From positions 1 to 32,000 of the forward strand of contig JAUNDF010000012.1 in assembly GCA_030526225.1 (NCBI GenBank): a stretch of 32,000 nt of DNA, in the 5' to 3' direction. Below, piece by piece: positions 5,205 through 25,187 of this stretch. Within the stretch, counting starts at the first letter, position 1. Every line of letters starts with the position of its first letter. The notes under the pieces were generated by a model. That model saw only the letters and a program-made list of their open reading frames with translations, was not told where the DNA came from and did not search any database. The DNA is from Clostridia bacterium. GTDB lineage: Bacteria; Bacillota; Clostridia; Christensenellales; Aristaeellaceae. Both the position numbers and the translations under genes were made by a program.

Positions 5205-5432
5205 TATAAAAAACACCGCGAGCAGAGCCGGCGGTGTTGTACACAGACATACAAAGTCATTTGATATCAGCACTCCGCCGGGCAATCGCCCGATGACAGC
5301 CGCACGGGTATTCCCCGGGCGTCCAAGTCACAGATGCGGGCCATCTGCGCTTTCGGCATCATTCCCTTTCCCTGCCGCTCTCCGGGCTTCCCGGCCCTCC
5401 CTGCAGGTACTTTTGTCTGATGCGCCTCTGAC
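5205..5432 (-). promoter_or_regulatory. lysine riboswitch (L-box) with terminator expression platform, leader of asd-dapA-dapB
   Basis: The reverse strand contains the L-box hallmarks in order: AGAGGCGC, GGGAG, GCCGAAAG, CUGUCA and GGAGUGCU. These are followed by the hairpin ACACCGCcggcucugcucGCGGUGU plus UUUUUU (about 5205-5240), just before the asd RBS. Confidence 0.8.
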
Positions 5433-5457
5433 AAAACATATATTCAGTTCCATGGGT

Positions 5458-7032: not shown

Positions 7033-8532
7033 TCAGCCTGCCAGATGCATGCCCTGAATCAGCAGCAGATACACAAGGCCATAATAGGTGACCACAGCCA
7101 CCAGGTCATTCACGGTGGTAATCAGCGGACCTGCAGCTACCGCCGGGTCAACACCCACCTTTTTGAAAAACAAAGGGATGACTGTGCCCATGATGCTGGA
7201 AACCGTCATGGCCACCAGCATGGCAATGCCGATGCAGCCGCTGACCAAAAAGCTGAAGCCCGGCAAATTGCCCTTCAGCAGCCACAGATACAGCCCCACA
7301 AACCCGAAGGACATCAGCCCCAGTATGGCACCGCAGGTGAAGCCGGTGCGACCCTCTTTAAACACAAGACCCAGCTTCTCCTTGCCGGTGATGGCGTATT
7401 CGTCAGCAATCACGCGGATGGTCACTGCCAGAGACTGGGTGCCCACGTTGCCGGCCATGCCCAGAATCATGCTCTGGAAGGCCACCACGGTGGCCAACTG
7501 GGCCACCACGCCCTCAAAGATGCCGGCCACGCTGGATACCAGAAGGCCCAGCAGCATCAGCGTCAGCAGCCACGGTGTGCGTTTTTTCAGGGACTGCAGC
7601 AGCGGCTCCTTCAAATCTTCTTCAGCGGTCAGACCTGCGAAACGGACGTAGTCCTCGCCCATCTCTTCATCCACGACCTCCACCAGGTCCTGAGAGGTAA
7701 TAACGCCCAGCAGGTGCTTTTCCATATCCAGCACAGGGATGGAGTCCTCGCTGTATTCCTTCAGCTGTTCGATGCACTCGCTGATGTTTTCCTTCGCATA
7801 CACAAAGGGGTAGCTGGTCACAATCAGCGATTCCAGATCATCGTGCTCCCGGGCGCAAATCAGGTCCTGCAGGGTGATGGCCCCGTAGAACTCCTCTTCC
7901 CCATCCAAAACATAGATGGTCATCATGTTATCGTTCTCGGCCGCCTGCTCCACCACGGAACGCATAGCCTGACGCACGGTAACCCCCCGACGGATGGTGA
8001 TGTAGTTGGTTGTCATGCGGGAACCAATCTCATCATCATCGTAGGACTGAATCATGGCGATGTCATGGCGAGCCTCCGCATCCATGCGGGCAATGATGGC
8101 CTCCTGCTGTGCCTCATCCAGTTCCTACAGGGTATCGATGGCATCGTCCGCGTCCATGTTTTCCAGAATGTCCGCCGCACGCTCGATGTCCATGCCGGCC
8201 AGATACTCGGCAGGATTTTCAACGTACGCAAACACCTCGGACGCCTTGTCCGGGCCAAGGATGCGGTACAGCTCGTTCCGTTCCTCCGCCGACAAAAGGT
8301 GGAGAATCTGCGCGATATCATTTTCGTGATAATCGTTGAGGCGCTCGTGCTTCTCCCGGTCGGGCAGGTCGCTGCGAATCAGCGCCACAAGCTCCGCATC
8401 GTAGTCAGGGCGCTCCGGGGCTTCCTCTTCCGGCTCCTCCGGCACCTCTGCCGCCGCAATCGGTTCTTCGTCGGTTTCCTCTATATTCGGCTGTTGCTTC
8501 ATCAGTTCTTCTTCGTTTTCAATTTTATTCAT
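7033..8532 (-). CDS. mgtE: magnesium transporter MgtE (copy 2), interrupted by one in-frame TAG at 8125-8127
   Basis: Track ORFs 8125..8577 and 7033..8085 are in the same frame and together align end-to-end with copy 1. The TAG aligns with Asp in ..DAVDILDELDEE.. of copy 1 (here ..DAIDTL*ELDEA..). I placed the start at ATG 8532, which has GGAGG 8 nt upstream. The terminal stop is TGA. Under code 11 this would be a pseudogene. Confidence 0.75.
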
Positions 8533-8580
8533 CCGCTTCGCCTCCGCACTGTCATTTTTCTTCCGGAAAGCAAGCACACC

Positions 8581-8755
8581 AAAACACCCTCGACCGGTAT
8601 GTCAGGGCGTGATTGCGCTTCCACTTGTGACCAATACAGGATAACGAACAGAGCTGCCGGAACCATTTACACCGTTATGCCCGGACAAAAACGGCGGCAG
8701 CGCGTCTTCGTCCTATACTGTCCTGACCGTCCACCCGCTGCCACCTCACTTTCAT
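8581..8755 (-). promoter_or_regulatory. structured 5' leader of the mgtE pair; candidate M-box (Mg2+) riboswitch with terminator
   Basis: The reverse strand has GUGAGG, GACGCGCUGCCGCC..UGUCC, ACGGUGUAAAUGGUUC and ACAAGUGGAAGCGCAAUCACG. These parallel blocks of the B. subtilis ykoK M-box as I remember it. They are followed by the hairpin CCCUGACauaccgGUCgAGGG plus UGUUUU (8581-8607). The match was made by eye only. Confidence 0.45.
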
Positions 8756-8770
8756 TTGCTCATATAGCCA

Positions 8771-8800
8771 ATTATACATTCAATTGCATAAAAAAGTCAA
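8771..8800 (-). promoter_or_regulatory. promoter for the mgtE leader (TTGACT-N18-TATAAT)
   Basis: The reverse strand reads TTGACTtttttatgcaattgaatgTATAAT, immediately upstream of the leader. Confidence 0.55.
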
Positions 8801-8879
8801 ATGATTTTCAGGCATTTGAAAAGGCACGGCAGGAAAAATTTCTTTTACAATTTTCCTGCCGCACCTGTGTCGATTTTCA

Positions 8880-9683
8880 TTATTTCGCAAGCTTCATGCC
8901 GTACTTTTGTTCAAACTCCCGCACAATTCTTGCCGGGCCGGGGTCAAGGAAGTAATCCAGCGCCTTTTCCCGCAATGTCTGCGGAACCCCGTAGTATGCC
9001 TCGGCCACGCTGCCGGCAATGGCGGCAATGGTGTCGCAGTCACCGCCAAGGGACACAGCGGTGCGGATGACATCCTCATAATCATTGCCCTCTGCAAACA
9101 CCTCCAGCGCCTGAGGCACACTGCCCTGACAGGTGACATCAAAGGTGTAGGTTGGGCGAATCTGGTCGATGGTGAAATCCAGCCGGTAGTAGTCCCGGTT
9201 GATGCAGTCAATGATGGTCTGCTTGTCCGCGCCGGTTCTTGCCATGTAGATGGCCACCGCCACGGCCTCTGCCGCCTTCAGTCCCTTGGGATGGTTGTGG
9301 GTCACTTCGGTTACCTTCCGGGCCAGCGTCTTGCATTCCTCCAGAGAGGATGCCGCCCAGCCAGCCGCGCTCACCCGCATGGCGGCACCGTTGCCAAGGC
9401 TGTTGTAGGGCTGAGGATTGTCGGAAAACATCCATGTCTTAAACCTTCCGCCATAGCCGCAGTGGGGATAGTGCCGTCCGATGAGCTGCATGCTTTTCAC
9501 CGTCTGCTGTGAAAGGTTCGTCCAGTCGCCATTGCACTGCAGAATTGCATGCGCCACCGCAATGGTCATCACCGAATCATCGGTAAACCAGCAGCTGCGG
9601 GAAAGCAAGTCAAATTCCTTGGTCTTGATGTTGTTGAATTCAAAGCGGGAGCCTGCGATATCGCCGATAATTGCACCGAGCAT
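8880..9683 (-). CDS. ADP-ribosylglycohydrolase family protein
   Basis: The ORF reads MLGAIIGDIAGSRFEFNN...FTDDSVMTIAVAHAI...GNGAAMRVS...GGDCDTIAAIAGS, typical of the ARH/DraG-like family. I placed the start at ATG 9683, preceded by TAGGAGG. The stop is TAA. Confidence 0.85.
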   Translation of the reverse strand: MLGAIIGDIAGSRFEFNNIKTKEFDLLSRSCWFTDDSVMTIAVAHAILQCNGDWTNLSQQTVKSMQLIGRHYPHCGYGGRFKTWMFSDNPQPYNSLGNGAAMRVSAAGWAASSLEECKTLARKVTEVTHNHPKGLKAAEAVAVAIYMARTGADKQTIIDCINRDYYRLDFTIDQIRPTYTFDVTCQGSVPQALEVFAEGNDYEDVIRTAVSLGGDCDTIAAIAGSVAEAYYGVPQTLREKALDYFLDPGPARIVREFEQKYGMKLAK

Positions 9684-9894
9684 GTTGCTGCCTCCTATAC
9701 AAGGTCGTTTTATTTCTGTTGACATGATGATGATACCATACATTGCCCTCATACAGGTCGCTCGGCGGGAGACATTTGCATTTTCTGTATTTTTGACACA
9801 ACCGACTGCAAATTGTGCCTATTTCTTTTTTGCCGTCTCTGCTACAATAACCATGTCAACAAACAAAAGATTTAATTCATGAAAGGATGATTTG

Positions 9895-10083
9895 ATGATG
9901 ACAAAGAAGGTTTATCGCTCCAAGGGCAACAGAATGATTTTCGGCGTATGCGGGGGACTTGCCGAGTTCTTCTCCATCGATCCCACGCTGGTGCGGCTGG
10001 CCGCGGTGCTGTTGTGTGCCATCGGCGGCAGCGGCATTGTGGGCTACATCATTGCCGCCATCCTGATGCCCGAGGCTGTTTAA
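9895..10083 (+). CDS. PspC domain-containing membrane protein
   Basis: The sequence KKVYRSKGNRMIFGVCGGLAEFFSIDPTLVRLAAVLL is the PspC-domain signature. An AAGGA RBS is present. The stop is TAA. Confidence 0.8.
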   Translation: MMTKKVYRSKGNRMIFGVCGGLAEFFSIDPTLVRLAAVLLCAIGGSGIVGYIIAAILMPEAV

Positions 10084-10097
10084 CGGAGGGATGCCCC

Positions 10098-10280
10098 ATG
10101 AATATCCAGCGCGTGATTGTCCTCATCCTGGTCGTGGCAGGGCTTTCGTTTCTGCTGATAAATCTGCTGACCGACTGGAACGATTATCTGTCCCTGACGC
10201 TTGCCCTGCTGTGCACTGCGGCAGCAAACTTCCTGAATCTTGCCATGATGAAGAAGGAACGGAAGGACAATGAGAATTAA
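10098..10280 (+). CDS. small hydrophobic membrane protein (60 aa), hypothetical
   Basis: The ATG is preceded by GGAGGG. There are two predicted TM helices (MNIQRVIVLILVVAGLSFLLINLL..., ..LTLALLCTAAANFLNLAMM). It is probably coupled to the PspC-domain gene. I recognised no family. Confidence 0.5.
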   Translation: MNIQRVIVLILVVAGLSFLLINLLTDWNDYLSLTLALLCTAAANFLNLAMMKKERKDNEN

Positions 10281-10906
10281 CTGAAAGAAGCGCCCGACAT
10301 CGGACGCTTCTTTTTGTGCCTGTCTGTTGGTTTTTGTTTGACCGGCGTAAAGCCGCGGGCAACCTGACCTTCCAGATCAAACTCCACGTACCACCAGTCA
10401 CCATGATAGTTGTAGCGGCCCACCACATAGTAGTTTTCGCCGGGGTCGATGGTGGCAAAGCAGCGGTTCTTGTTGAAGGTGGACAGGTTGTCATCGGTAA
10501 CATACAGGGTTTCATCAGCCACCATTTCGATGGAGGTGAAGTGCGGGGCCATCTTGGTGCTGACACCCTTGACATACTTGGGGGGAATCCAGCCCACGCG
10601 CCACTGGCCCTTGTTGGTCTCGTAGCGGACAATCATCCAGCCGCGCTCGTCAAAGCCGCCCACATCGATGTAGCTGTTGGTATCCACACAAGCCTTGCCG
10701 TTAGCGGCACGATAGGCATCCGTATAGGGTGCGGAATACACCGGGCAGGTTCCGCGGCCAAAGCCCTTCTTCATGTGTTCAAACTTGAACGGCGGAATGG
10801 AGGAAAGGCTGCTGCTTCCTCCGTTGTTCAGCTTTGTACCGGCAAAGGCTGTGGTCATGGACAGCACCAGCACCAAAGCCAGCACCAGAGACAGAATTCT
10901 TTTCAT
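10277..10906 (-). CDS. secreted protein with signal peptide and SH3b-like repeats, hypothetical
   Basis: The ORF has an N-terminal signal peptide (MKRILSLVLALVLVLSMTTAFAG). The motifs 'WMIVRYETNKGQWRVGWIP' and 'WWYVEFDLEGQVARGF' resemble bacterial SH3 domains. The stop is TAA and overlaps the convergent gene's stop (TTAA). Confidence 0.65.
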   Translation of the reverse strand: MKRILSLVLALVLVLSMTTAFAGTKLNNGGSSSLSSIPPFKFEHMKKGFGRGTCPVYSAPYTDAYRAANGKACVDTNSYIDVGGFDERGWMIVRYETNKGQWRVGWIPPKYVKGVSTKMAPHFTSIEMVADETLYVTDDNLSTFNKNRCFATIDPGENYYVVGRYNYHGDWWYVEFDLEGQVARGFTPVKQKPTDRHKKKRPMSGASFS

Positions 10907-11034
10907 TTGTCATTCCTCCAATGAATTGCACCGTTTGGGGTACATCTGATGTCATCATTGTAACATTTTCAAGCGCGCGGTGCAATGTCGCATTTGGTTT
11001 TTTAAGGGTTTGAGTGCCGCAGAAAAGGCTCGGA

Positions 11035-11063
11035 TTGACAAGGCATCTCCCGGCTGTTAAAAT
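11035..11063 (+). promoter_or_regulatory. promoter for the small peptide gene (TTGACA-N17-TAAAAT)
   Basis: The sequence TTGACAaggcatctcccggctgtTAAAAT lies about 100 nt upstream of the ATG at 11167. Confidence 0.5.
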
Positions 11064-11166
11064 AAATCAAAAAAATTTTTTAATTTATGCGGCCCTGACA
11101 CCGTTTCGGCTGTATAAAAGGGCGAAACACAAAAACAACCTCCACCTGAAGAAAGGATGATATACG

Positions 11167-11379
11167 ATGGATAAGAAATTGAGAGGCATTTTCAACTACC
11201 AGTCATTCTCCCCCGACAGCAGACTGAGCAGCCTGATTAACGACACCATGAGCCGCTATTCCGCCGGCACAGAGCTTAGTGACGATGACCTGATGTTCGT
11301 CAATGCCGCCGGCAGCCCCGAGCAGGCCCGTCAGAGCGCCGATGCCCTGCGCTCCATCCTCGATAAAGCCGATAAATAA
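11167..11379 (+). CDS. 70-aa putative exported precursor peptide with a double-glycine-type (NHLP-like) leader end
   Basis: An AAGGA RBS is present. The sequence ..GTELSDDDLMFVNAAG|SPEQ.. resembles the ..ELSDEELEAVAGG end of C39-processed leaders. The gene has its own promoter and a strong terminator. It sits directly upstream of a C39-peptidase ABC exporter operon. The stop is TAA. Confidence 0.55.
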   Translation: MDKKLRGIFNYQSFSPDSRLSSLINDTMSRYSAGTELSDDDLMFVNAAGSPEQARQSADALRSILDKADK

Positions 11380-11395
11380 TCACCGCTGTCCCTGT

Positions 11396-11431
11396 CCCCT
11401 CCGGCATCAAACGCCGGAGGGGCATTTTTTG
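11396..11431 (+). terminator. intrinsic terminator after the peptide gene
   Basis: There is a perfect 10-bp stem, CCCCTCCGGCatcaaacGCCGGAGGGG, followed by caTTTTTT. Confidence 0.8.
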
Positions 11432-11453
11432 TGTTATGCAGCCTGCGACCGTG

Positions 11454-11482
11454 TTGTCAATTTCATCCGGATTTGATATAAT
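11454..11482 (+). promoter_or_regulatory. promoter for the sigma/ABC operon (TTGTCA-N17-TATAAT)
   Basis: The sequence is TTGTCAatttcatccggatttgaTATAAT, about 40 nt upstream of the sigma factor ATG. Confidence 0.5.
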
Positions 11483-11520
11483 TGTGACGAATTATTTCCT
11501 CTTAAATAGCAGGAGGCAGC

Positions 11521-12003
11521 ATGGATCAGGAAAAGATTTATTCGGAATATTATCCCAAGGTATTGCGTTATGTGCGCTCCAAAATCAGCCGGTATGATGA
11601 AGCGGAGGATCTGGCGCAGAACGTGTTTGTGAAGGTCTTTCAAAAGTGGGATACCTTTGACGAAACAAAGGCATCCATTTCCACCTGGATTTATACCATC
11701 ACCCATAACACCGTGTGCAATTATTACAAATCCATGAGCTACCGGCAGACCGAAGAGCTGCCCGAGCAGGTGGCGGACGAAATCACCCCGGATTTTACCG
11801 AGGAGATTGTCCAGAAGGACATGCAGGGCCGTTTGGCTGATGCCCTGTCCACCATGCCCCAGGAAAAGCGGGATTTGATTATCCTGTATTACTACGGCGG
11901 CGTTACCCTGAAGGACATCGCCGTCAAGATGAACCGCCCCTACGGCCAGATTAAGCGGCTGCACGAAAAAGTGCTCAAGGAGCTGTCCCTGGCTCTTGGC
12001 TGA
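11521..12003 (+). CDS. ECF-type sigma-70 family RNA polymerase sigma factor
   Basis: The 160 aa ORF has region 2 (..DEAEDLAQNVFVKVFQKWDTFDE..STWIYTITHN) and region 4 (..KRDLIILYYYGGVTLKDIAVKMNRPYGQIKRLHEKVL). The RBS is AGGAGG. The stop is TGA. Confidence 0.85.
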   Translation: MDQEKIYSEYYPKVLRYVRSKISRYDEAEDLAQNVFVKVFQKWDTFDETKASISTWIYTITHNTVCNYYKSMSYRQTEELPEQVADEITPDFTEEIVQKDMQGRLADALSTMPQEKRDLIILYYYGGVTLKDIAVKMNRPYGQIKRLHEKVLKELSLALG

Positions 12004-12024
12004 TGACAAACGGAGGTGTTTCCC

Positions 12025-12234
12025 ATGAACGAATCTCTGTTTCGCAAGGCCAGCCTGGACCGCATCGCATCCCCGGAGGATTCGGATGAGTACCTGCGCC
12101 GCACCCCGGTTCCCCGATGGCTGATTGCCGCGGCAGCCGCGGTGCTGCTTTTCGGCGCGGCCTGCTGGGGATATACCGCATACACCGCGCTGCATCCGGC
12201 CCCATCCATCACGGAAGGGAGCACAGCAGAATGA
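12025..12234 (+). CDS. 69-aa membrane protein resembling only the N-terminus plus TM anchor of HlyD-type (NHLM bacteriocin system) secretion proteins
   Basis: The sequence MNESLFRKASLDRIASPEDSDEYLRRTPVPRWLIAAAAAVLLFGAACW matches the conserved start of HlyD-like accessory proteins (..ALxRLSSPEQLD..PRxWL..TM). It stops about 20 aa after the TM helix. The RBS is GGAGGTG. An ATGA overlap links it to the next gene. Confidence 0.6.
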   Translation: MNESLFRKASLDRIASPEDSDEYLRRTPVPRWLIAAAAAVLLFGAACWGYTAYTALHPAPSITEGSTAE

Positions 12235-14402
12235 GCTTTATCAAAAAATCCGCATCCGGCAGCGTTGTCCGCGTGCCGGTGATTTTGCAGCTGGAGGCGC
12301 TGGAGTGCGGTGCCGCCTGTCTGGCCATGATTTTGGCCTGCTACGGCAAATGGGTTCCGCTGGACAAGGTCCGCACAGACTGCGGCGTATCCCGGGACGG
12401 CTCCAATGCCAAAAACCTGCTCCTTGCCGCCCGCAGCTATGGCATGACGGCCAAGGGCATCCGCATCGAGCCGGAGGCACTGAAGAAAAACGGCGCCTTC
12501 CCTTGCATTATCCACTGGCAGTTCAACCACTTTGTGGTGCTGTGCGGCTTCCGCAAAAATGCGGCTGTCATCAATGACCCGGCCCGTGGCACCGTTGAAA
12601 TCCCCATGGAGGAATTCAGTCAGGCCTTCACCGGCATCTGCCTGATGATGACACCGGGCGAGCACTTTACCATTGGCGGCAGAAAAAAGAAGACAGCAGC
12701 GTACATCCGCGAGCATCTGAGGGGCGCCGGAAAGCACATCGCCGTTACGGCATCGCTGGCGGTGCTGGTAGGGCTGGTGGGCATTGCGCATACGTTTTTT
12801 GCCCAATATTTTATGGATAACCTTCTGGGGAAGCAGCAGCAAAAGGCCGCTCCCCTGTTTCTGCTTTTGTTCCTGCTGCTGGCAGTGGTGACCGTGGTGG
12901 CCAGAGGCTATCAGGCTCGGTATTCCCTGCGGCTGATGGGCCGCTATGCCGTGAAAGCCAACGCAGGCTTTATGCAGCACATTCTGCAGATGCCGGTGTA
13001 CTTTTTCTCCCAGCGCATGTCCGGTGATATCCTCGGCCGCAAGCGCAGCAATGAAAGCATCGCCTTTACGCTGATTGACACCATGGCCCCCATCGTGATC
13101 GACGGAGCGCTGGCTGTGGTGTATCTGGCGATTATGCTCCGCACCAGCTGGGTGCTGGCGCTCATCGGCATCGGCGGCATGGCCGTGCATCTGCTGATGA
13201 ACCGGCATCTGTCCGGCAAGCGGGAAAACATCTCCCGGCTAAACCTGCGCAACGAGGCCAAGCTGGATTCCGCCACCGTATCCGGCATGGAGATGATTGA
13301 AACCATCAAGTCCAGCGGCGCAGAAAGCGGCTTTTTCGCCAAATGGGCGGGCTGTCAGGCGGCAGTCCACAATCAGAACCTGAAAAGCCGCAATCTGGAG
13401 AATCTGTACACCCTCAGCATGAACGCCGTGTCCATTGCGGTGGATATGGGCATTCTGTTCCTTGGTTTGCGTCTGATTATCCGCGGCGATATGACCGTGG
13501 GCATGCTGTTTGCGTTTCAGGGCTTTCTGATGTCCTTCATGAACCCCGTCACCCGCATTGCCTTCTCCGGCAGCGCCCTGCGGGAGATGCGCAGCAGCAT
13601 GGAGCGCATTGAGGATGTGATGGAGTACCCTGCCGACAAGATGTGTGCACAGCAGAGCGCATCCTGCGAAGCACCGGAAAAGCTCCGGGGCGAAATCGAG
13701 CTGCGCCATGTGACCTTCGGCTACTCTCCCCTTGCAAAGCCCTTGATTGAGGACCTGAGCCTGACGGTCAAGCCCGGTGAAAAGATTGCGCTGGTGGGTG
13801 CCTCCGGCTGCGGCAAGTCCACGGTATCGAAGCTGATTTCCGGCCTGTATCAGCCCTGGAGCGGCGAAATCCTGCTGGACGGCAAGCCGCTGACGGAGAT
13901 TGACCGCAGTGTGCTCACCGGCTCGCTGGCGGTGGTGGATCAGGACATCACCCTGTTTGAGGATACCATCGCCAACAACATCAAGATGTGGGACACCACC
14001 ATCGAGGATTTTGAGATGATTCTCGCCGCCCGGGATGCCAGCATGCATGATGTGATTATGCAGCGGAATGAGGGCTACCGTTATAAAATGTCAGAGGGCG
14101 GCCGTGACTTCTCCGGCGGTCAGCGCCAGCGGCTGGAAATTGCCCGGGTGCTGGCCCAGGACCCCACCATGATCATCATGGATGAGGCCACCTCTGCGCT
14201 GGATGCCAAAACAGAGTTCGATGTGGTCAACGCCATCCGCGACCGGGGCATCACCTGTCTGGTGATTGCCCACCGCCTGTCCACCATCCGGGACTGTGAC
14301 CAGATTCTGGTGATGGACCACGGCAGGATTATCGAGCGGGGCACCCATGGCGAGCTGATGGCCGGCGGCGGCATCTATCAGCAGCTGATTATGAACGATT
14401 GA
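12231..14402 (+). CDS. bacteriocin/peptide-exporting ABC transporter with N-terminal C39 peptidase domain (peptidase/permease/ATP-binding)
   Basis: The C39 catalytic context is present (LQLEALECGAACLAMIL and ..HWQFNHFVVL..). The ORF also has a six-TM ABC exporter domain, Walker A (GASGCGKST), the signature (LSGGQRQR) and Walker B (IIIMDEATSALD). I placed the start at ATG 12231. The stop is TGA. Confidence 0.9.
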   Translation: MSFIKKSASGSVVRVPVILQLEALECGAACLAMILACYGKWVPLDKVRTDCGVSRDGSNAKNLLLAARSYGMTAKGIRIEPEALKKNGAFPCIIHWQFNHFVVLCGFRKNAAVINDPARGTVEIPMEEFSQAFTGICLMMTPGEHFTIGGRKKKTAAYIREHLRGAGKHIAVTASLAVLVGLVGIAHTFFAQYFMDNLLGKQQQKAAPLFLLLFLLLAVVTVVARGYQARYSLRLMGRYAVKANAGFMQHILQMPVYFFSQRMSGDILGRKRSNESIAFTLIDTMAPIVIDGALAVVYLAIMLRTSWVLALIGIGGMAVHLLMNRHLSGKRENISRLNLRNEAKLDSATVSGMEMIETIKSSGAESGFFAKWAGCQAAVHNQNLKSRNLENLYTLSMNAVSIAVDMGILFLGLRLIIRGDMTVGMLFAFQGFLMSFMNPVTRIAFSGSALREMRSSMERIEDVMEYPADKMCAQQSASCEAPEKLRGEIELRHVTFGYSPLAKPLIEDLSLTVKPGEKIALVGASGCGKSTVSKLISGLYQPWSGEILLDGKPLTEIDRSVLTGSLAVVDQDITLFEDTIANNIKMWDTTIEDFEMILAARDASMHDVIMQRNEGYRYKMSEGGRDFSGGQRQRLEIARVLAQDPTMIIMDEATSALDAKTEFDVVNAIRDRGITCLVIAHRLSTIRDCDQILVMDHGRIIERGTHGELMAGGGIYQQLIMND

Positions 14403-14412
14403 GGAGGCGCAC

Positions 14413-16602
14413 ATGAGTTGGGTTGAAGAACAAATCAAGCAGCGCATCCACAGAGATAATCAGCTGTACGATGATGCCATGGCCCGGATGGATGCCATGG
14501 CCGAGGGAAAGCCCTATACCGGCTCCGCCCCCGGCAGCCGCGAGCTGGTGGGGCAGGCCATGGATGAAATCCTGCGCTATTACCATGTCAAGCCCCCTGA
14601 AATCCCCGATTCCATCACGGATACGGAGGAAATGCTGGAATACCTGCTGCGCCCCTCCGGCATCATGCACCGCACCGTTTCCCTCACCGGTGACTGGTAC
14701 ACCCATGCCACCGGTGCCATGCTGGCCGCTACGCAGGACGGTACCGTCATCGCCCTGATTCCCGGCAGAGCCCGCGGATATTATTATCGGGAAAGTGCCA
14801 CCGGCAAACGAATCAGAATCACCAAAGCAAACGCGGATACCATCGCCGCCCCGGCCATCTGCTTTTATCAGCCCATGCCGCAGGAGAAGATGACCGCCGC
14901 GGATTATGTGCTGTATCTGTTCCGCCAGCTGCAGCTGAAGGACTTTCTCCGCATGGCGGCGGCCACCCTGCTGATGACCCTGCTGGGGCTGCTGATTCCC
15001 GTGGTGACCGCGTTCCTTTACAGCAAGGTGCTGGCAGACAAGAGCATCGCGCTGCTCGCAGGCGCGGTCCTGTCCATGCTGTGTGTGCGGCTGGCCATGG
15101 CGCTGATTGATTTGGTCAAGCGCATCATGCTGACGGACATCACCGCCGGCATATCATCCGCCGCAGAAAGTGCGCTGATGATGCGGCTGCTGTCCCTGCC
15201 GGCATCATTTTTCAAGCAATACGGTGCGGGCGAGCTGTCCGGGCGAATCACCTGCGCAAGGGTGCTGGCAGAGCGGCTGTTCAGCGCCCTGTTCACCCTG
15301 GCACTGTCCTCCGTATTCGCGCTGATGTACGTCATCCAGCTGGCGAAATTCGCCCCTGCGCTGATGTTCCCGGCGGTGCTGGTCATCCTTGTTACCTTCA
15401 TGATTCAGCTTACTGCCGGATTCATCCGCGCCCGCTATTTTGAACAGTATGTGACAGAAAGCACCAAGGAGAGCGGTCTGGTGCTGGCGCTGATGAACGG
15501 CCTGACGAAGATTCGCGTTTCCGGCAGTGAAAAGCGCGCCTTTTCCAAGTGGAGCGAGCAATACATCAAGGCCGCCAAAAACCTGTACAATGTTCCCGCT
15601 TTCCTCACCCTGCGGGATGCAATCACCGCCGCCGTGACCCTTGCCGGTACGCTGGTGATGTATTGTCTGGCCCTTGCCTCCGGCATCACACAGGCGGAAT
15701 ACTTGGCGTTCTTCGCCGCCTATGGCATGCTCTCCGGTGCATTTGCCGCGCTGGCAGACATTGCCTATACCAATGCGGAAGTCAAGCCCCTGCTGAACAT
15801 GATTGCCCCCATGCTGGCAGTCGTGCCGGAGGTGGGTAAAAGCCGCCGGATGGTCACCTCCCTTCGCGGCGGCATTGAGCTGAGCCATGTGTCCTTCCGT
15901 TATCAGGACAACATGCCCGATGTGCTGGACGATTTGTCCCTGACCATCCGTCCGGGGCAGTATGTGGGCATTGTGGGCAAAACAGGCTGCGGCAAATCCA
16001 CCCTGATGCGCATCCTGCTGGGCTTTGAAAAGCCACAGCGGGGCACCGTGTATTACGACAGGCAGGATATTGCCGCACTGGACCTGAAGTCCCTGCGCCG
16101 CCACATCGGCACCGTGATGCAGAATGACCGCCTGTTCATGGGTGATATTTTCTCCAACATCACCATTGCCGCCCCGAAGCTGACACTGGATGATGCATGG
16201 CAGGCCGCCGAAACCGCCGGCGTGGCGGATGACATCCGTGAAATGCCCATGGGCATGCATACCTTCATCTCCGAGGGACAGGGCGGCATCTCCGGCGGTC
16301 AGCGCCAGCGGCTGCTCATCGCCCGGGCCATTGCGCCCAAGCCCAAAATCCTCCTGTTTGACGAGGCCACATCGGCACTGGACAACATCACTCAAAAGAA
16401 GGTATCCGATGCGCTGGCTCAGCTGAAGTGCACGAGGATTGTCATCGCTCACCGGCTGTCTACCATCCGCAACTGTGACCGGATTCTGGTAATGGACAGG
16501 GGCAAAATCATCGAAGACGGCACCTATGACCAGCTGATGGCCGCCGACAGCTTCTTTGCGGAGCTTGTGCGGCGTCAGCAAGTGACACAGCAAGCGAATT
16601 GA
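14413..16602 (+). CDS. second ABC exporter subunit (permease/ATP-binding) with a degenerate, Cys-less C39-like N-terminal domain
   Basis: The 729 aa ORF has an N-terminal domain of about 160 aa with no catalytic Cys. It also has a TM exporter domain and the motifs GKTGCGKST, ISGGQRQR and ILLFDEATSALD. This pairing is typical of two-ABC 'NHLM bacteriocin system' exporters. The RBS is GAGGAGG. The stop is TGA. Confidence 0.9.
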   Translation: MSWVEEQIKQRIHRDNQLYDDAMARMDAMAEGKPYTGSAPGSRELVGQAMDEILRYYHVKPPEIPDSITDTEEMLEYLLRPSGIMHRTVSLTGDWYTHATGAMLAATQDGTVIALIPGRARGYYYRESATGKRIRITKANADTIAAPAICFYQPMPQEKMTAADYVLYLFRQLQLKDFLRMAAATLLMTLLGLLIPVVTAFLYSKVLADKSIALLAGAVLSMLCVRLAMALIDLVKRIMLTDITAGISSAAESALMMRLLSLPASFFKQYGAGELSGRITCARVLAERLFSALFTLALSSVFALMYVIQLAKFAPALMFPAVLVILVTFMIQLTAGFIRARYFEQYVTESTKESGLVLALMNGLTKIRVSGSEKRAFSKWSEQYIKAAKNLYNVPAFLTLRDAITAAVTLAGTLVMYCLALASGITQAEYLAFFAAYGMLSGAFAALADIAYTNAEVKPLLNMIAPMLAVVPEVGKSRRMVTSLRGGIELSHVSFRYQDNMPDVLDDLSLTIRPGQYVGIVGKTGCGKSTLMRILLGFEKPQRGTVYYDRQDIAALDLKSLRRHIGTVMQNDRLFMGDIFSNITIAAPKLTLDDAWQAAETAGVADDIREMPMGMHTFISEGQGGISGGQRQRLLIARAIAPKPKILLFDEATSALDNITQKKVSDALAQLKCTRIVIAHRLSTIRNCDRILVMDRGKIIEDGTYDQLMAADSFFAELVRRQQVTQQAN

Positions 16603-16620
16603 AAGGAGTGTGCATCGATT

Positions 16621-17055
16621 ATGGAAAAGAAACGCTGTAAGGGCAAGCTTGTCATCATCCTGCTGCTGATTGTCAATCTCTGCGCCACGGCAGTATTTGG
16701 CACCATGCTGCTGACCCGCAAGCAGACAGCCTATGAGTCTGACGGCTTCCTTGTCTATGTGGGCCTGACCGACAAGGATGCCTACACGCAGGTGCTTTCC
16801 ACCGAAGAAGCCAAGGACAAGCTGGAGAACATCCTCAGCCGTCACCTGGGCGGCTATACCATCATCGATGCCACCGGCGGCTGGCTGGATGAAACCAACA
16901 CCATGAAGCGGGAACTCACCCTGATGTGCGTGATGAACGGCACGGACATCGACACCGTTCACAAGGTCTGCGACGATATTTTCGTGGAGCTGAATGTCAA
17001 CACGGTGCTCATCGAGCAAAAGCCCATCCATATGGAATATTATTCACGTAAATAA
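16621..17055 (+). CDS. membrane-anchored hypothetical protein (144 aa), last gene of the exporter operon
   Basis: The RBS is AAAGGAG. There is a single N-terminal TM helix (KLVIILLLIVNLCATAVFGTMLL) followed by a soluble domain of about 110 aa. I recognised no family. The stop is TAA. Confidence 0.6.
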   Translation: MEKKRCKGKLVIILLLIVNLCATAVFGTMLLTRKQTAYESDGFLVYVGLTDKDAYTQVLSTEEAKDKLENILSRHLGGYTIIDATGGWLDETNTMKRELTLMCVMNGTDIDTVHKVCDDIFVELNVNTVLIEQKPIHMEYYSRK

Positions 17056-17061
17056 CAGCAA

Positions 17062-17094
17062 AAGAGGCATCGACAAAACCGATGCCTCTTTTCA
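17062..17094. terminator. bidirectional intrinsic terminator between convergent operons
   Basis: There is a perfect stem, AAGAGGCATCGacaaaaCCGATGCCTCTT, flanked by A-runs and T-runs. Confidence 0.7.
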
Positions 17095-17143
17095 AATGCG
17101 CTCCAGCAGCTCCTCCGGCTTGATGGCCGGTACGGGGCTGGTT

Positions 17144-17440
17144 TTATTCCACCACCAGGAAGTCGGCAAAGCCGGTGATTTCAAACACGTCCATCACGCC
17201 TTCGCACACATTGGTCAGCTTGAGGCCGCCGGCGTTGAGGTACTTCTTGTGGGCGCTGAGCAGCACGCGCAGTCCGGCAGAGGATACATACTGTACGCCG
17301 GACATGTCGAGGGTCAGCTGATTGATTTCATCCCCCAGCTGGAACAGTGCTGTTTCCAGGGTGGAAGCAGTGGCCGTATCAAGGCGGCCATCCAGCTTCA
17401 GGGTTGCGGCGTTGTTGTTCTTTTCAGTGGTAATGGTCAT
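17144..17440 (-). CDS. STAS-domain anti-sigma-factor antagonist (SpoIIAA/RsbV-like)
   Basis: The 98 aa ORF reads ..LKLDGRLDTATASTLE...LDMSGVQYVSSAGLRVLL.., containing the conserved phosphorylatable Ser context. The stop is TAA. Confidence 0.85.
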   Translation of the reverse strand: MTITTEKNNNAATLKLDGRLDTATASTLETALFQLGDEINQLTLDMSGVQYVSSAGLRVLLSAHKKYLNAGGLKLTNVCEGVMDVFEITGFADFLVVE

Positions 17441-17454
17441 GGGAATCGTCCTCC

Positions 17455-20253
17455 TTACAAAATCTTTTTCTGCATGGTCAGTACATTTTCGCCATGCTCG
17501 TAGCTGTATTCCAGATTGTCCATGGTCTTTCTTGTAATCAGGATGCCAAGGCCGCCGATGTCACGCTCCTCCACGCTTGCGGTGATGTCCGGGTCCTGAT
17601 GCTCCAGCGGATTGAAGGGCTTGCCGTGGTCGCGGAAGCGGAAGGTCACGGTGCCGGTGGGTTCATCATAGGCGATGCCCACATTGGCGGTGCCGTCCTC
17701 GCCGTTGTAGGCGTAGTGGGCAATGTTGACGAATATCTCCTCAATGGCGATGCTGATGGCCATCTGCAGCTTCATGGGGCAGCCCAGCTGCTCCAGCTCG
17801 CCCTCCAGGAACGCCTGCACATCCCCCAGCGCCCTTGCATCTGCGGGGAAGGTCTTTTCCTTCATGGCCTGTCCTCCCTTCATGTAGTCCAGCATCAGCA
17901 TGGTCATGTCATCGAACTGAGGCGCATCGCCCACAAAGCGGTCGATATCCTCCTTCAGCTGATGAAGCAGGTCATGCGCATTCAGCCCTGCATGGCCGTT
18001 GAGGTAGGTCAGCAGCCGCTCTTCGCCATACAGCTGCTCCTTTGCATCGGTGGCTTCCGTTACGCCGTCAGTGTACAGGAAGATGCGATCGCCGGGGGCA
18101 AGGTTCATTTCGTTCAGGCGGTAGCGGATGCCCTCCATGCCCGCCAGCACAAAGCCGGGGCGGGACTTGAGATAGGTGAAGGTGCCGTTTTGCAGCAGCA
18201 CCGGCGGATTGTGTCCGGCATTGGCGTACTGCAGCTTGCCCGTTGTCAGGTCAAGGATGCCCATCCATGCGGTCACGAACATGGCCGATTCGTTGCTCTC
18301 GCACAGCTTTTCGTTGGCCAGGGTCAGGATTTCGTTCACCGCCAGCCTGCGCTCGGCCAGCTCCTTGATGATGGTCTTGGCGCGCATCATAAACAGCGCT
18401 GCCGGGATGCCCTTGCCGGAAACATCCGCGCAAAGGATGGCCACCCGATCCTCATCCAGCAGATAGAAGTCGTAGAAGTCGCCGCCCACTTCCTTCGCCG
18501 CAATCATTTGCGCATAGATGTCGAAGCGGTCCTGCTGGGGATAGGGCGGGAACTTGGAGGGCAAGGCAGACAGCTGAATCTGCTTGGCGTACTCCAATTC
18601 CTTGTCGATGCGGGCCGCCGTTTCGGCGATGTAGCGCTTCAGGGTGCTGACGGTGGAGTTGATATCATCCGACAGGGAGGAGAATTCCTCGTTGGTGCGG
18701 ACATTGACCTGCACGTTCAGGTTGCCGTCTGTAATTTCGGAAAGGGATGCGTTGATTTTGTGAAGGTTATTGATGATGACCTTCTTGATGAGGAAGTACA
18801 CCAGCAGGAACAGCATGGCAAAAATCAGAATCTCCATCAGGATGGATACATAGATGGATGCATCCCGCATGAAGTCTGCTTCCGCTTCCGGGAGGGTGCC
18901 CACGATGTAGTAGCCCTCGCTGCGCAGATAGGAGAACATGCAGGGTTCCCCGTCCAGCAGGGTGCGGTAAACCTGACCCTCGCGCATGTTGTCGGGCTCG
19001 TCCATCATGTCCATCAGGTTACGGCCCTTGCTGTCCTCAATCAGATTCCAGTCGCTGTCGCAGATGATGATTTTGCCGCTGTTGCCGATGTGGCGGTTCT
19101 TGGCCGCCTGGAACACGTATTCATCCACATCATGCTTGAACTGTGCATAGGAGTAGCCCGCCTGCAGGAAGCCGCCGCCGGGCAGACTGACCGCACCGTA
19201 CTTGCGGGAGGTGGCTCCGTTGTAGGCAATGGGCTGATAGCTTTGGGCGTACTCCTCCGTGCCCTCCAGCATGCACATAAACTCCCGGGACTGCTCGCCG
19301 CTGTCCATGTGATAGCCAACGAAGGTCGGCAGAGTGGACTATACGATGACACCGTTTTTGTCGACGATGTTGATTTCAATCACATCGTTTTTCAGCGCCA
19401 GCCGGGTCAGCTTTTTGCTGTCCCACTGATCGTCCTTCAGGTATTCCGAGCGGATTTTCCGCGCCACCTGCAGCAGATGGCGGTCGGAAGCATCGTTGAC
19501 ATCCTGCCGGACATCGTTCAGGGCAAGGTTGATGACCTTTTGGGTTTCCGTCCAGGCCATGTTGCTCTGCAGGTTGAAGGTAAAGATACTGGTCACCAGA
19601 TAGGCCACCAGAATGCAGACCATCAGCCATGTCTGGAAGGTCTGGGCGATGCCCTTCTGCCGGTCATCGGTCTTTTTCTTTTCCTTGCTGATGAGCGATA
19701 CCAGCAGCAGCGCCAGACCCACGGAAATGGCGTTGCCCGCCATCATGGGCACGCATCCGCCGCGGACATAGGCAAAGGCATTGGCGGCATCGTGGCGGTT
19801 GAGCAGGAAAATCATCAGCATGTGGGCCGCTTCGCTGACCACGGCAATGCCCGCACCATAGCCCCAGCTGGGCTTGCGGTCATCGAACATCAGCTTGCGC
19901 AGCAGCGCGGCCAGACAGCCCACCAGCATGGTGGATACACCGGCGGCAATGCGGGTGTAATCACCCACGCCCCAAATCAGCCGGTACAGGCCGCCCATAA
20001 AGCCGGCGATCAAACCGGCAGGGGCGCCGAAAATCAAACCGGCACACAGCGGCGCGGCATTGCGCAGTGTTACCACCGTTTCCTTGAGGGGTATGCCGTG
20101 GTTGGTGGCAAAAATCGCCACCGCGCCAAACAGCACACCGATGATAACCTGCTTTGCCTTTCCCGGCAATTTTTTGCAGACGGTGTACTTCTCCAGTACA
20201 TAAATCAGAAGAACAAGCAGCGTATTCATCATTGCGGGTAAAATCAGCTCCAT
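17455..20253 (-). CDS. membrane sensor protein: 5TM LytS/YhcK-type receptor domain, extracytoplasmic sensor, HAMP, PP2C (SpoIIE-type) phosphatase and RsbW-like HATPase; interrupted by one in-frame TAG at 19339-19341
   Basis: Track ORFs 19339..20253 and 17455..19308 are in the same frame. The N-terminal part has multi-TM 5TMR-LYT-like helices. The C-terminal part has HAMP, PP2C motifs (..GGDFYDF.., ..DVSGKGIPAALFM.., ..LYTDGVTEA..) and an anti-sigma-kinase-like ATPase tail. There is no RBS or start context after the TAG. The start ATG at 20253 has a GAGGGA RBS. The stop is TAA. Confidence 0.75.
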
Positions 20254-20416
20254 GTCAGTCCCTCATTCTATGGTTTTGCGGGAAGAATTACCTTGTTTAA
20301 TTATACCGCATTTCATGCCTTGCTTCAACTCCTTTTCCTGCCGCTTCATATAAACTTCATCATTCTTCCATAAAATGGATTCGTTTTGAAGATTGATGTT
20401 TCCCGGAGGCGTTTTG

Positions 20417-21202
20417 ATGATCATTTGGCTGATTTATCTGATTGCCGGCATCGGTGCGGGACTTGTCACCGGATTGGCCGGTCTTTCCGCGGCGGTGGTG
20501 ATTACGCCGCTGCTGGTGGGCGTTTGCGGCTGGGACAGCTATGATGCCGTTACCGTGGCCCTGGCCGCCGATGTGCTGGCCAGCATGCTGACGGCCAACA
20601 CCTACCGCAAGAACAAAAACATTGATATCAAGCGCGGCGTTCTGGTAGGTGCTACCGCATTGGTGGGTACGGCCGTGGGCAGCTGGTGCGGGTATCTGTT
20701 CAATCAGGCACAGCCCGGCGGACTGGGACTGATTGCCATGCTGACCACGGTCTTTCTGGGGCTGAAGTTCCTTTTGCGCCCCATGACCGGCGGCGCTTCC
20801 TCTTAGACCTTCGGGGAAGGCAAATCCGCCAACGCTAAAACGATTTTGGCCATGGTGTGCGGTCTTGGCATCGGCTGGGTCTGCGGTTTTACCGGCAGCG
20901 GCGGCGGCGTGCTGATGCTCACCGTGTTCACCCTGCTGCTGGGCTACAACCTGAAGGTGGCCGTTGGCACCAGCACCATGATTATGACCGTGGTGGCGCT
21001 GGTGGGTGCAGTCAGCCATGTGGCCATGGGTGCGGTGATTCATCCCCTGCCCATGCTGGCCATTGTGGCCTGCTGTCTGCTGGCTGCATGGCTCAGCGCC
21101 CGGTTTGCCAACCGGTGTGAAATCACCCGGCTCAACAAGGTCATCGGTGTGGTGCTGATGATTCTCGGCGCGTTTACCATCATCATGAAATACGCAGTGT
21201 AA
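20417..21202 (+). CDS. TSUP (TauE/SafE) family anion exporter-like permease, interrupted by one in-frame TAG at 20804-20806
   Basis: Track ORFs 20393..20806 and 20846..21202 are in the same frame. Together they give the 4+4 TM TSUP architecture of about 261 aa (..GLVTGLAGLSAAVVITPLL.. and ..GFTGSGGGVLMLTVFTLLLGYNLKVAVGTS..). The TAG lies in the central loop. I placed the start at ATG 20417, which has GGAGG upstream. The stop is TAA. Confidence 0.7.
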
Positions 21203-23179: not shown

Positions 23180-25093
23180 TTAATACAGCTTTGCACCGGC
23201 GGGGATGTGGTTATCCACCATCAGCAGGTGCAGCTTCTCCTCGCCCTCCTCATTGTGGATAGCGGAGAGCAGCATGCCGCAGGATTCGATGCCCATCATG
23301 GGACGGGGCGGCAGGTTGGTGATGGCAATCAGCGTTTTGCCCACCAGCTCTTCCGGCTCATAGAAGGCATGAATGCCGCTGAGGATGGTCCGGTCGGTGC
23401 CGGTGCCGTCATCAAGGGTGAACTGCAGCAGCTTCTTGCTCTTCTTCACTGCCTCGCAGGCCTTGACCTTTACAGCGCGGAAGTCGGACTTGGAGAAGGT
23501 GTCGAAGTCCACATAATCAGCGAACAGGGGCTCAATTTCCACCTTGCTGAAGTCGATGACCTCTTCCACAGCTTCTTCCTTCTGTTCCTTCTTGCCCTCG
23601 GCCTTCTTCTGGCCGCCGATGGTCTTCATGGTGGGGAACAGCAGCACGTCGCGGATGGCGGCGCTGTCGGTGAGCAGCATCACCAGGCGGTCAATGCCGT
23701 AGCCGATGCCGCCCGTGGGAGGCATGCCGATTTCCAGTGCGTTGAGGAAGTCCTCATCGGTGTGCTGGGCTTCTTCGTCACCGGCGGCGGCGTTGGCATC
23801 CTGCTGGGCAAAGCGCTCACGCTGGTCGATGGGGTCGTTCAGCTCGCTGTAGGCGTTGCACATCTCCCAGGTGTTGCAGAACAGCTCGAAGCGCTCTACC
23901 TTGGTGGGATCGGAGGGCTTCTTCTTGGTCAGGGGGGAGATGGCCAGAGGATGGTCCATAATGAAGGTGGGCTGAATCAGGTTCTTCTCGCAGTATTCCT
24001 CGAAGAACAGGTTGATGATGTCGCCCTTGGTGTGGCGCTCTTCGTACTCAATGTGGTGCTCCTTGGCGATGGCCTTGGCTTCCTCATCGGTGGCCACGGT
24101 GTCGAAGTCGATGCCGGCGTACTTCTTGATGGCATCGTTCATGGTCAGGCGCTCGAAGGGCTTGCCGAAGTCCAGCTCGATGCCGTTGTAGGAAATCTTG
24201 GTGGAGCCTACCACGGTTTCGGCCAGATAACGGAACATGCTCTCGGTCAGCTCCATCATGCCCTCATAATCGGTATAAGCCTGATACAGCTCCATCAGGG
24301 TGAACTCAGGATTGTGGCGGGTATCCACGCCCTCGTTGCGGTACACGCGGCCGATTTCGTACACGCGCTCCAGACCGCCCACAATCAGCCGCTTCAGGTA
24401 CAGCTCCAGGGAGATGCGCAGCTTCACGTCCTCATCCAGGGCGTTGTAGTGGGTTTCAAAGGGGCGGGCAGCAGCACCGCCAGCGTTGCTTACCAGGGTG
24501 GGGGTCTCCACCTCGATGAAGCCGCGGCCATCCAGGAAACGGCGGATTTCCTTGATAATCTGGCTGCGCTTGAGGAAGGTCTCCTTCACCTCGGGGTTCA
24601 TAATCAGGTCCACATAGCGCTGACGATAGCGGGTATCGGTGTCGGTCAGGCCGTGGAACTTCTCGGGCAGGGGCTTGAGGGACTTGGTCAGCAGCACGAT
24701 TTCCTCTGCATGCACGGAAATCTCGCCGGTCTTGGTCTGGAACACAAAGCCCTTCACGCCCCAGATGTCGCCGATGTCGCTCTTCTTGAAATCGGCGTAC
24801 ACATCCTCACCCACATTGTCGCGGGCCACATACACCTGAATCTTGCCCTTCAGGTCCTGCAGGGAGCAGAAGCTGGCCTTGCCCATGACGCGCTTGAACA
24901 TCATGCGGCCGGCGATGGAAACCTTCTGGCCGTCCATGGCCTCGAAGTTGCCGGTGATGTCTGCGCTGTGGTGGGTCACATCGTACTTGGTGATTTCATA
25001 GGGATTCTTGCCTGCATCCACCAGGGCCTGCAGCTTCTGGCGGCGGATTACCTCCTGCTCGCTCAGTTCGGGATTTACGGGATAGTCGGCCAT
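23180..25093 (-). CDS. lysS: lysine--tRNA ligase (class II) with a C-terminal appended OB-fold tRNA-binding domain
   Basis: The LysRS core is present (..[10 protein letters not shown].., ..FIEVETP.., ..[11 protein letters not shown].., ..[17 protein letters not shown]). It is followed by a Lys/Glu-rich linker and a Trbp111/CsaA/EMAP-like domain of about 110 aa (..[31 protein letters not shown]...GMLLSA). I placed the start at ATG 25093, which has an AAGGAGG RBS. The stop is TAA. Confidence 0.9.
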
Positions 25094-25187
25094 GGATGGT
25101 CGTCCTCCTTGCTGAATTTCATTAAACTGTATGCATTGCGCAAACTGTTCCGGGGGCAAGCGCTTGGCCTGTCCCCGGCTTTGGTGA

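Follow-up and report, generated by a model that had tools for sequence, protein, structure and literature searches.

Can a bacterial lineage read the amber codon TAG as an amino acid in its own chromosome? The question is raised by the first 32,000 nucleotides of contig JAUNDF010000012.1 (NCBI GenBank assembly GCA_030526225.1; henceforth the window), a piece of chromosome from an uncultured clostridial bacterium with 0.57 GC (guanine plus cytosine) content, in which the genes for a magnesium transporter, a sensor phosphatase and a permease are each split by a single in-frame TAG. We found that single in-frame TAGs recur in two genomes of separate samples, in genes that are otherwise well conserved, that TAG is unused as a terminator in these loci, and that TAG coincides with conserved acidic alignment columns. 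We consider it rather likely from these comparisons that TAG is decoded as sense at the level of a lineage in these uncultured Clostridia, probably as glutamate (Glu); Glu appears to be the most likely single residue, an assignment that we make only tentatively. The three genes and their in-frame stops are as follows (codon numbers assume that TAG is translated; TM, transmembrane helix):

7033–8577, minus strand: mgtE copy 2 (mgtE2), Mg2+ transporter with MgtE_N, CBS and MgtE domains, 514 codons
8125–8127, minus strand: in-frame TAG, codon 151 of mgtE2
17455–20253, minus strand: sensor phosphatase (PP2C gene) with 5TMR-LYT, a sensor region, SpoIIE/PP2C and HATPase_c_2, 932 codons
19339–19341, minus strand: in-frame TAG, codon 305 of the PP2C gene
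20396–21202, plus strand: TSUP/TauE family permease, 268 codons
20804–20806, plus strand: in-frame TAG in the central loop between the permease's two 4-TM halves

The original prediction, made from the letters of the DNA without database searches, had placed the three stops at these positions between same-frame pieces and had described family homology continuing across them with no other lesion. Both descriptions were confirmed: the TAGs lie where they had been placed, and full-length homologues align unbroken across them. In all three genes the pieces flanking the TAG share a frame and match consecutive parts of the family. Specifically, the mgtE2 pieces match positions 1–70 of the Pfam profile MgtE_N and then CBS and MgtE, and the gene aligns gap-free across the TAG with the adjacent mgtE1 (69% identity). 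The pieces of the PP2C gene match 5TMR-LYT and then SpoIIE and HATPase_c_2 in Pfam, with residues 1–931 aligning contiguously to intact homologues of 932–945 amino acids, while those of the permease match positions 1–111 and 123–235 of the 237-position TauE profile, and full-length TSUP homologues (248–260 amino acids) align across its TAG. The closest relatives of the PP2C, MgtE and TSUP proteins are 63–70% identical.

Apart from the TAGs, the window carries no sign of gene decay of the kinds looked for. No window gene is interrupted by TAA or TGA (the same-frame TAA and TGA junctions are only boundaries between different genes), none shows a frameshift or truncation, and the coding density amounts to 91%. 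Changes at near-invariant columns affect 2 of 115 positions in mgtE2, equal to mgtE1 and thus no excess, and 9 of 329 in the PP2C gene, which is inside the range of its homologues. Relaxed constraint was therefore not seen in mgtE2 or the PP2C gene, a result that a very recent mutation would equally give; long-term decay of the interrupted genes was rejected on the lack of excess changes at conserved sites. TAG makes up 3 of the 9518 codons in the window. Codon usage is extreme more generally, with TTA (4) and CTA (3) as rare as TAG (3).

One alternative is that the genetic code is standard and that the TAGs are independent, recent amber nonsense mutations, leaving pseudogenes or truncated products in dispensable or paralogous genes. 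From window data alone, recent nonsense mutations and amber decoding could not be separated. It had been argued earlier that random pseudogenisation would not use TAG alone and that a normal genome would end some of its genes in TAG; we found both arguments to be weak. Under the codon usage of the window, in which CAG, AAG and GAG are strongly favoured, 52–63% (about 58%) of single-base nonsense changes yield TAG, and the probability that three of three stops are TAG is about 0.19 (range 0.14–0.25). As to terminators, the earlier count of 19 TAA, 7 TGA and no TAG stood except for TAA, which we recounted as 20 with small genes included (27 genes). In loci of related genomes TAG ends 10 of 120 genes (about 8%), at which rate its absence from 27 genes has a probability of about 0.1 and is, for the window alone, not significant. 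The TAG-only pattern and the absence of TAG terminators are thus each weakly significant within the window. Among window open reading frames (ORFs) that end in TAG, none is gene-like except the three upstream pieces. TAA, for its part, terminates 74% of window genes in spite of the 57% GC.

Stronger evidence comes from related loci found through the protein LysS. A small cluster of sequences is 89–92% identical to the LysS of the window (confirmed pairwise), and every other sequence is at most 85% identical. LysS is itself unusually conserved, with 89–92% identity inside the cluster and about 84% identity to its counterparts in Lachnospiraceae such as Roseburia, which can be read in two ways: lysS was transferred, or it merely evolves slowly. 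From this cluster we selected contig k141_548767 of ENA record ERZ27247138 (henceforth L048; GC 0.53) solely on its LysS identity (90%) and its length. L048 comes from a different sample and study than the window and shares asd-dapA-dapB, greA and lysS with it. It contains four in-frame TAGs:

8801: TAG, the only in-frame one in a gene for a GDPD phosphodiesterase
12747–13652: ketopantoate reductase, one in-frame TAG at 13254
16284–18092: IlvD/Edd dehydratase, one in-frame TAG at 16602
fourth TAG: three codons ahead of the TGA in an MGMT-like gene

Solved homologues of the GDPD, ketopantoate reductase and IlvD/Edd proteins align unbroken across each TAG, L048 contains no gene interrupted by TAA or TGA, and TAG accounts for 4 of its 6173 codons. 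The ketopantoate reductase and the IlvD-family dehydratase could share a pantothenate/branched-chain pathway, and if their TAGs were true stops this would fit loss of that pathway.

A third locus, a contig from the metagenome_contigs collection (L049), carries the LysS closest to that of the window (92% identical). If TAG is treated as sense, the window, L048 and L049 together have 57 genes, which end in 29 TAA, 28 TGA and no TAG; at a terminator rate of 8% the probability of this is about 0.007, by our own arithmetic and on a small sample. All seven in-frame stops of the window and L048 are TAG, where random nonsense would be expected to give TAG in 50–58% of cases (P about 0.01–0.02).

For comparison, other loci from Clostridia and from Lachnospiraceae were gathered via PP2C and LysS, about 1.4 Mb in all. 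Three homology-free screens (a self-trained codon model, a longest-ORF and Shine-Dalgarno filter, and an amino-acid-composition classifier) all missed known cases or gave many false hits, and their counts were not relied upon. The control rate rests instead on manual review of the flagged same-frame junctions and of every TAG junction left after filtering by length and overlap. On this review the control junctions are gene boundaries, ordinary terminators and one convincing TAG-interrupted gene. The control loci are thus almost free of interruptions, which makes strong outliers of the window, with 3 interrupted genes in 27, and of L048, with 3 in 20; the LysS cluster is the sole link between the two. 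Among 42 PP2C homologues we found no internal stop, the stops seen there being the natural boundary between PP2C and HATPase genes. A PP2C-based scan of GTDB genomes for a close relative of the window gave a best match of 64% with no synteny and with all homologues intact, and was kept for its control value only; the best partial PP2C match (L016) was rejected as a close relative on its GC of 0.46 and differing gene architecture. The interrupted control gene, at +1766 of contig L116 (OHOK01001660.1, Lachnospiraceae), encodes a large Fn3-like repeat surface protein with one TAG at a Trp-like column ('...VTVA*TAVKGATEYTV...'), which looks like an ordinary TGG-to-TAG nonsense change.

Both outlying records are metagenome assemblies, and the TSUP site and the L048 sites are each known from one assembly, so it could be asked whether the TAGs are sequencing or assembly artefacts. 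We regard this as extremely improbable. A literature search for the run or the accession gave no match. Over 11.8 kb, the window and the Logan contigs assembled from run SRR24915835 agree at 100% identity, bar one 27-nucleotide intergenic tandem duplication; this independent assembly, with zero mismatches, confirms the TAG at 8125 (contig L047) and that at 19339 (contig L043), while the TSUP site lies outside its coverage. Three random stop-creating errors would moreover imply dozens of further errors, and the same pattern appears in the assembly of another study. No flanking context is shared among the TAGs of the window and L048, and a methylation or motif artefact was rejected on this ground. 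The tandem duplication (GAAGTTTATATGAAGCGGCAGGAAAA...) is found at position 265 of L043 and is absent from the metagenome-assembled genome; it corresponds to about 20332 in the window, between the PP2C and TSUP genes, and reflects either strain variation or assembly collapse.

If TAG is translated, which residue does it specify? The original prediction saw no way to distinguish between glutamine (Gln), Glu and pyrrolysine (Pyl); the alignments now make Glu the favoured residue and speak against Pyl. The residues found in homologues at each TAG are:

GDPD (L048): in all three structures, the Glu of the HRG..PEN(T/S) motif
IlvD/Edd (L048): in all three structures, the Glu of ADS(V/I)E
mgtE2 (window): among 120 close homologues, 69 with Asp, 50 with Glu and 1 with His; in distant MgtE proteins of solved structure, Gln or Asn
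PP2C (window): variable (N 10, A 4, K 4, D 1, E 1, G 1)
ketopantoate reductase (L048): variable (R, E, S)
TSUP (window): Ala in the nearest homologues, within a loop whose length varies

On these alignments, Glu would be compatible with all six sites, Gln would fit the conserved acidic columns poorly, and Pyl or lysine would be incompatible with them. The columns bear directly on the possibility of a bacterial counterpart of the archaeal Genetic Code 34, in which tRNA(Pyl) and PylRS read TAG genome-wide. Pyl is the sole natural amber-decoding system known in bacterial chromosomes and is used genome-wide in some archaea, and the low TAG usage and scattered in-frame TAGs seen here resemble those archaeal genomes. 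A bulky lysine derivative is nevertheless unlikely to be tolerated at the conserved Glu or Asp/Glu columns of GDPD, IlvD and MgtE, and the approximately 66 kb examined contain no pyl gene and no gene for a methylamine methyltransferase, the classical setting of Pyl; no methyltransferase of this kind is among the TAG-bearing genes. We thus judge Pyl decoding to be very unlikely.

The TAGs could also be programmed stops, that is, sites of conditional, site-specific readthrough or boundaries of true split genes whose downstream halves are translated by reinitiation. A start codon does follow 10–15 codons beyond each window TAG, and the TSUP protein could conceivably function as two 4-TM halves. 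The earlier statement that the downstream pieces lack a start context was largely correct: PP2C and TSUP have no Shine-Dalgarno sequence, and mgtE2 has AGGAGG, though at 14 nucleotides upstream of its next ATG. However, the stops lie inside domains (MgtE_N, the PP2C sensor region, the GDPD motif and IlvD_N) and not at domain boundaries, and they have no sequence context in common. The 120 nucleotides downstream of the window TAGs fold no better than shuffles (z of +0.36, +0.54 and -0.15), and no PYLIS-like or readthrough-stimulating structure was found there. The proposal of regulated readthrough in the original prediction is therefore unsupported, and programmed stops of either kind carry very little weight in our assessment.

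This leaves the choice between nonsense mutation under the standard code and amber decoding, and several observations weigh against the latter. L049, in spite of having the closest LysS, has 10 genes with neither an in-frame TAG nor a TAG terminator. Outside LysS, the window and L048 are distant (identities of 67% for Asd, 50% for DapA and DapB, and 40% for GreA), which leaves the lineage ill defined. The TAG-bearing genes are all either accessory or members of paralogous sets, mgtE2 even adjoining mgtE1, and the housekeeping genes lysS, ileS, asd, dapA, dapB, greA and pyk are all without TAG, which is extremely rare throughout (below 1% of Glu codons). As to the residue, three of only six sites are variable columns and uninformative, and the Glu columns are equally predicted by a single-step GAG-to-TAG nonsense mutation. 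Against such an origin, however, GAA (260) is, in L048, more frequent than GAG (159), so that G-to-T hits on Glu codons should favour TAA over TAG. The CUA anticodon is a poor substrate for glutamyl-tRNA synthetase (GluRS), which normally needs its cognate anticodon, and Glu decoding would consequently require extra adaptation. ARAGORN found no tRNA gene in the window, as had been noted from the start, and the related loci contain only a tRNA-Pro and no tRNA(CUA). Finally, the control rate is approximate, given that the homology-free screens were noisy and missed known cases.

Nonsense mutation draws further on the fact that 50–63% of possible nonsense changes give TAG under this codon usage, and on L116, where a genuine nonsense-type interruption does exist. 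It would, however, require that about 12% of genes are affected in two genomes, as against at most about 0.2% in the controls, with zero frameshifts, truncations or loss of coding density, no TAA or TGA in seven events, no TAG terminator in 57 genes, and no added substitutions at conserved sites of the interrupted genes. We therefore find it unlikely, though less so than any other alternative considered here. The sense-decoding model explains stop type, terminators, constraint and coding density jointly, and it predicted the pattern in L048, a genome chosen blind to it. The preference for TAG decoding in the original prediction thus holds as the most likely explanation, on the strength of L048, the terminators of 57 genes and the controls, and not on that of the in-window arguments then offered.

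How might such decoding work? TAG would be translated instead of, or far more often than, being read as a stop in this lineage, and the three window genes would be intact and functional. We propose that a Glu-charged tRNA with anticodon CUA would decode TAG, and that release factor 1 (RF1) may be lost, weakened or outcompeted; its gene, prfA, is not among the genes of the window or the related loci. The rarity of TAG would fit a reassignment that is recent or still incomplete, or else tolerance of the codon chiefly in weakly expressed accessory genes, and since TAG still amounts to less than 1% of Glu codons the reassignment appears to be at an early stage. In its most specific form the proposal is that probably gut-associated Clostridia, Lachnospiraceae-like by LysS, have reassigned UAG from stop to Glu by means of a dedicated tRNA(CUA) and the loss or weakening of RF1, which we offer as plausible but fall short of favouring over all else.

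Parts of this proposal have precedents. In laboratory amber suppressors such as supE and supF, a tRNA with a CUA anticodon lets TAG-bearing genes be expressed, as we propose for the genes described here; unlike our case, these are laboratory mutations of partial efficiency, and they are not known to characterise a lineage or to be accompanied by a purge of TAG terminators. Peritrich ciliates read UAR as Glu. So does Blastocrithidia nonstop, and in the literature we found UAG or UAR as Glu is known only from eukaryotes such as this one (PMC12153298). These eukaryotic codes share with our loci the codon and the amino acid suggested by the alignments, but they are nuclear codes with changes in eRF1 in which UAA is co-reassigned, whereas TAA is the main terminator here.

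In Genetic Code 34, TAG specifies Pyl genome-wide in some archaea (bioRxiv 10.1101/2024.09.30.615893). There, as in our loci, TAG is a rare sense codon scattered over unrelated genes with homology on both sides, terminators are TAA and TGA only, and coding density under code 11 is undiminished, so that the change is easily missed. By contrast, those genomes are archaeal and carry pyl genes, whereas ours are bacterial and their aligned columns indicate Glu. Recoding of TAG to Gln is known from gut phages, including Lak, crAss-like and other clades (bioRxiv 10.1101/2021.08.26.457843, PMC7886860). The phages likewise use amber as sense via suppressor tRNAs (such a tRNA being our conjecture for the window), and probably in the same type of habitat, the animal gut. 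The hosts of these phages, however, use the standard code, while the window is chromosomal (a lysine riboswitch with asd-dapA-dapB, lysS, ileS and greA), and Gln is a poor match to its conserved acidic columns.

UGA has been reassigned in several bacteria (codes 4 and 25; Eggerthellaceae, PMC13462651; Codetta screen, PMC8629427), and these cases resemble the present one in being lineage-level changes of a stop codon in the chromosome, visible as in-frame stops in conserved genes. They differ from it in that all of those described concern UGA and none UAG: in the literature we found, bacterial chromosomes show UGA reassignments only (codes 4 and 25), with bacterial Pyl limited to a few enzymes, and large screens (Codetta, and gTranslate, which covers only tables 4, 11 and 25) have reported no bacterial chromosome in which UAG is reassigned.

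If true, the reading of TAG as Glu would add a genetic code with no earlier counterpart, either as an amber reassignment in a bacterial chromosome or as a stop-to-Glu code beyond the eukaryotes. It would offer a snapshot of early codon capture and bear on the debate between the ambiguous-intermediate and codon-capture models, and it could provide a natural, perhaps orthogonal, amber-decoding tRNA/synthetase pair from a Gram-positive bacterium. Given that TAG-recoded phages are common in guts, a host that reads TAG would also alter the interpretation of phage recoding.

It would expose, too, a blind spot in annotation, of which the sensor phosphatase gives an example: NCBI annotates a 605-amino-acid C-terminal fragment of it (17455–19308, minus strand) as a complete protein, MDO4483438.1. 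A search of protein collections gave no mgtE2 fragment among the matches listed. A fragment annotated as a normal protein in one case and no fragment listed in the other indicate that annotation under code 11 hides TAG-bearing genes.

The genes of the window, identified by Pfam (and, where indicated, by gene calls on the Logan contigs), and its riboswitch are as follows:

window: diacylglycerol kinase and galT (Pfam and Logan contig gene calls)
5260–5438, minus strand: lysine riboswitch (Rfam RF00168, 97 bits), upstream of the asd-dapA-dapB operon
window: two mgtE genes in tandem (Pfam)
window: ADP-ribosylglycohydrolase, and small PspC-like and membrane genes (Pfam and Logan contig gene calls)
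11035–16602, plus strand: 70-amino-acid gene, sigma-70 factor, 69-amino-acid gene and two ABC transporters, one with a C39 peptidase domain
17144–17440: STAS gene, next after the sensor phosphatase gene
window: TSUP permease, DUF1232 gene and SpoU methylase (Pfam and Logan contig gene calls)
window: lysS, greA, radical-SAM gene, CBS-DRTGG pyrophosphatase and ileS (Pfam and Logan contig gene calls)
23180–25159, minus strand (window), and 10001–11914 (L048): LysRS with a C-terminal tRNA_bind domain (PF01588)

The riboswitch overlaps the 5' end of the longest asd ORF, and the start of asd is therefore probably downstream of 5260. The genes at 11035–16602 form a possible peptide-export or signalling cluster. 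Within it, besides the 69-amino-acid ORF (12025–12234), the 70-amino-acid ORF (11167–11379) has a near-consensus promoter and a strong terminator, and its product includes '...ELSDDDLMFVNAAG|SPEQ...', which resembles a double-glycine-type leader.

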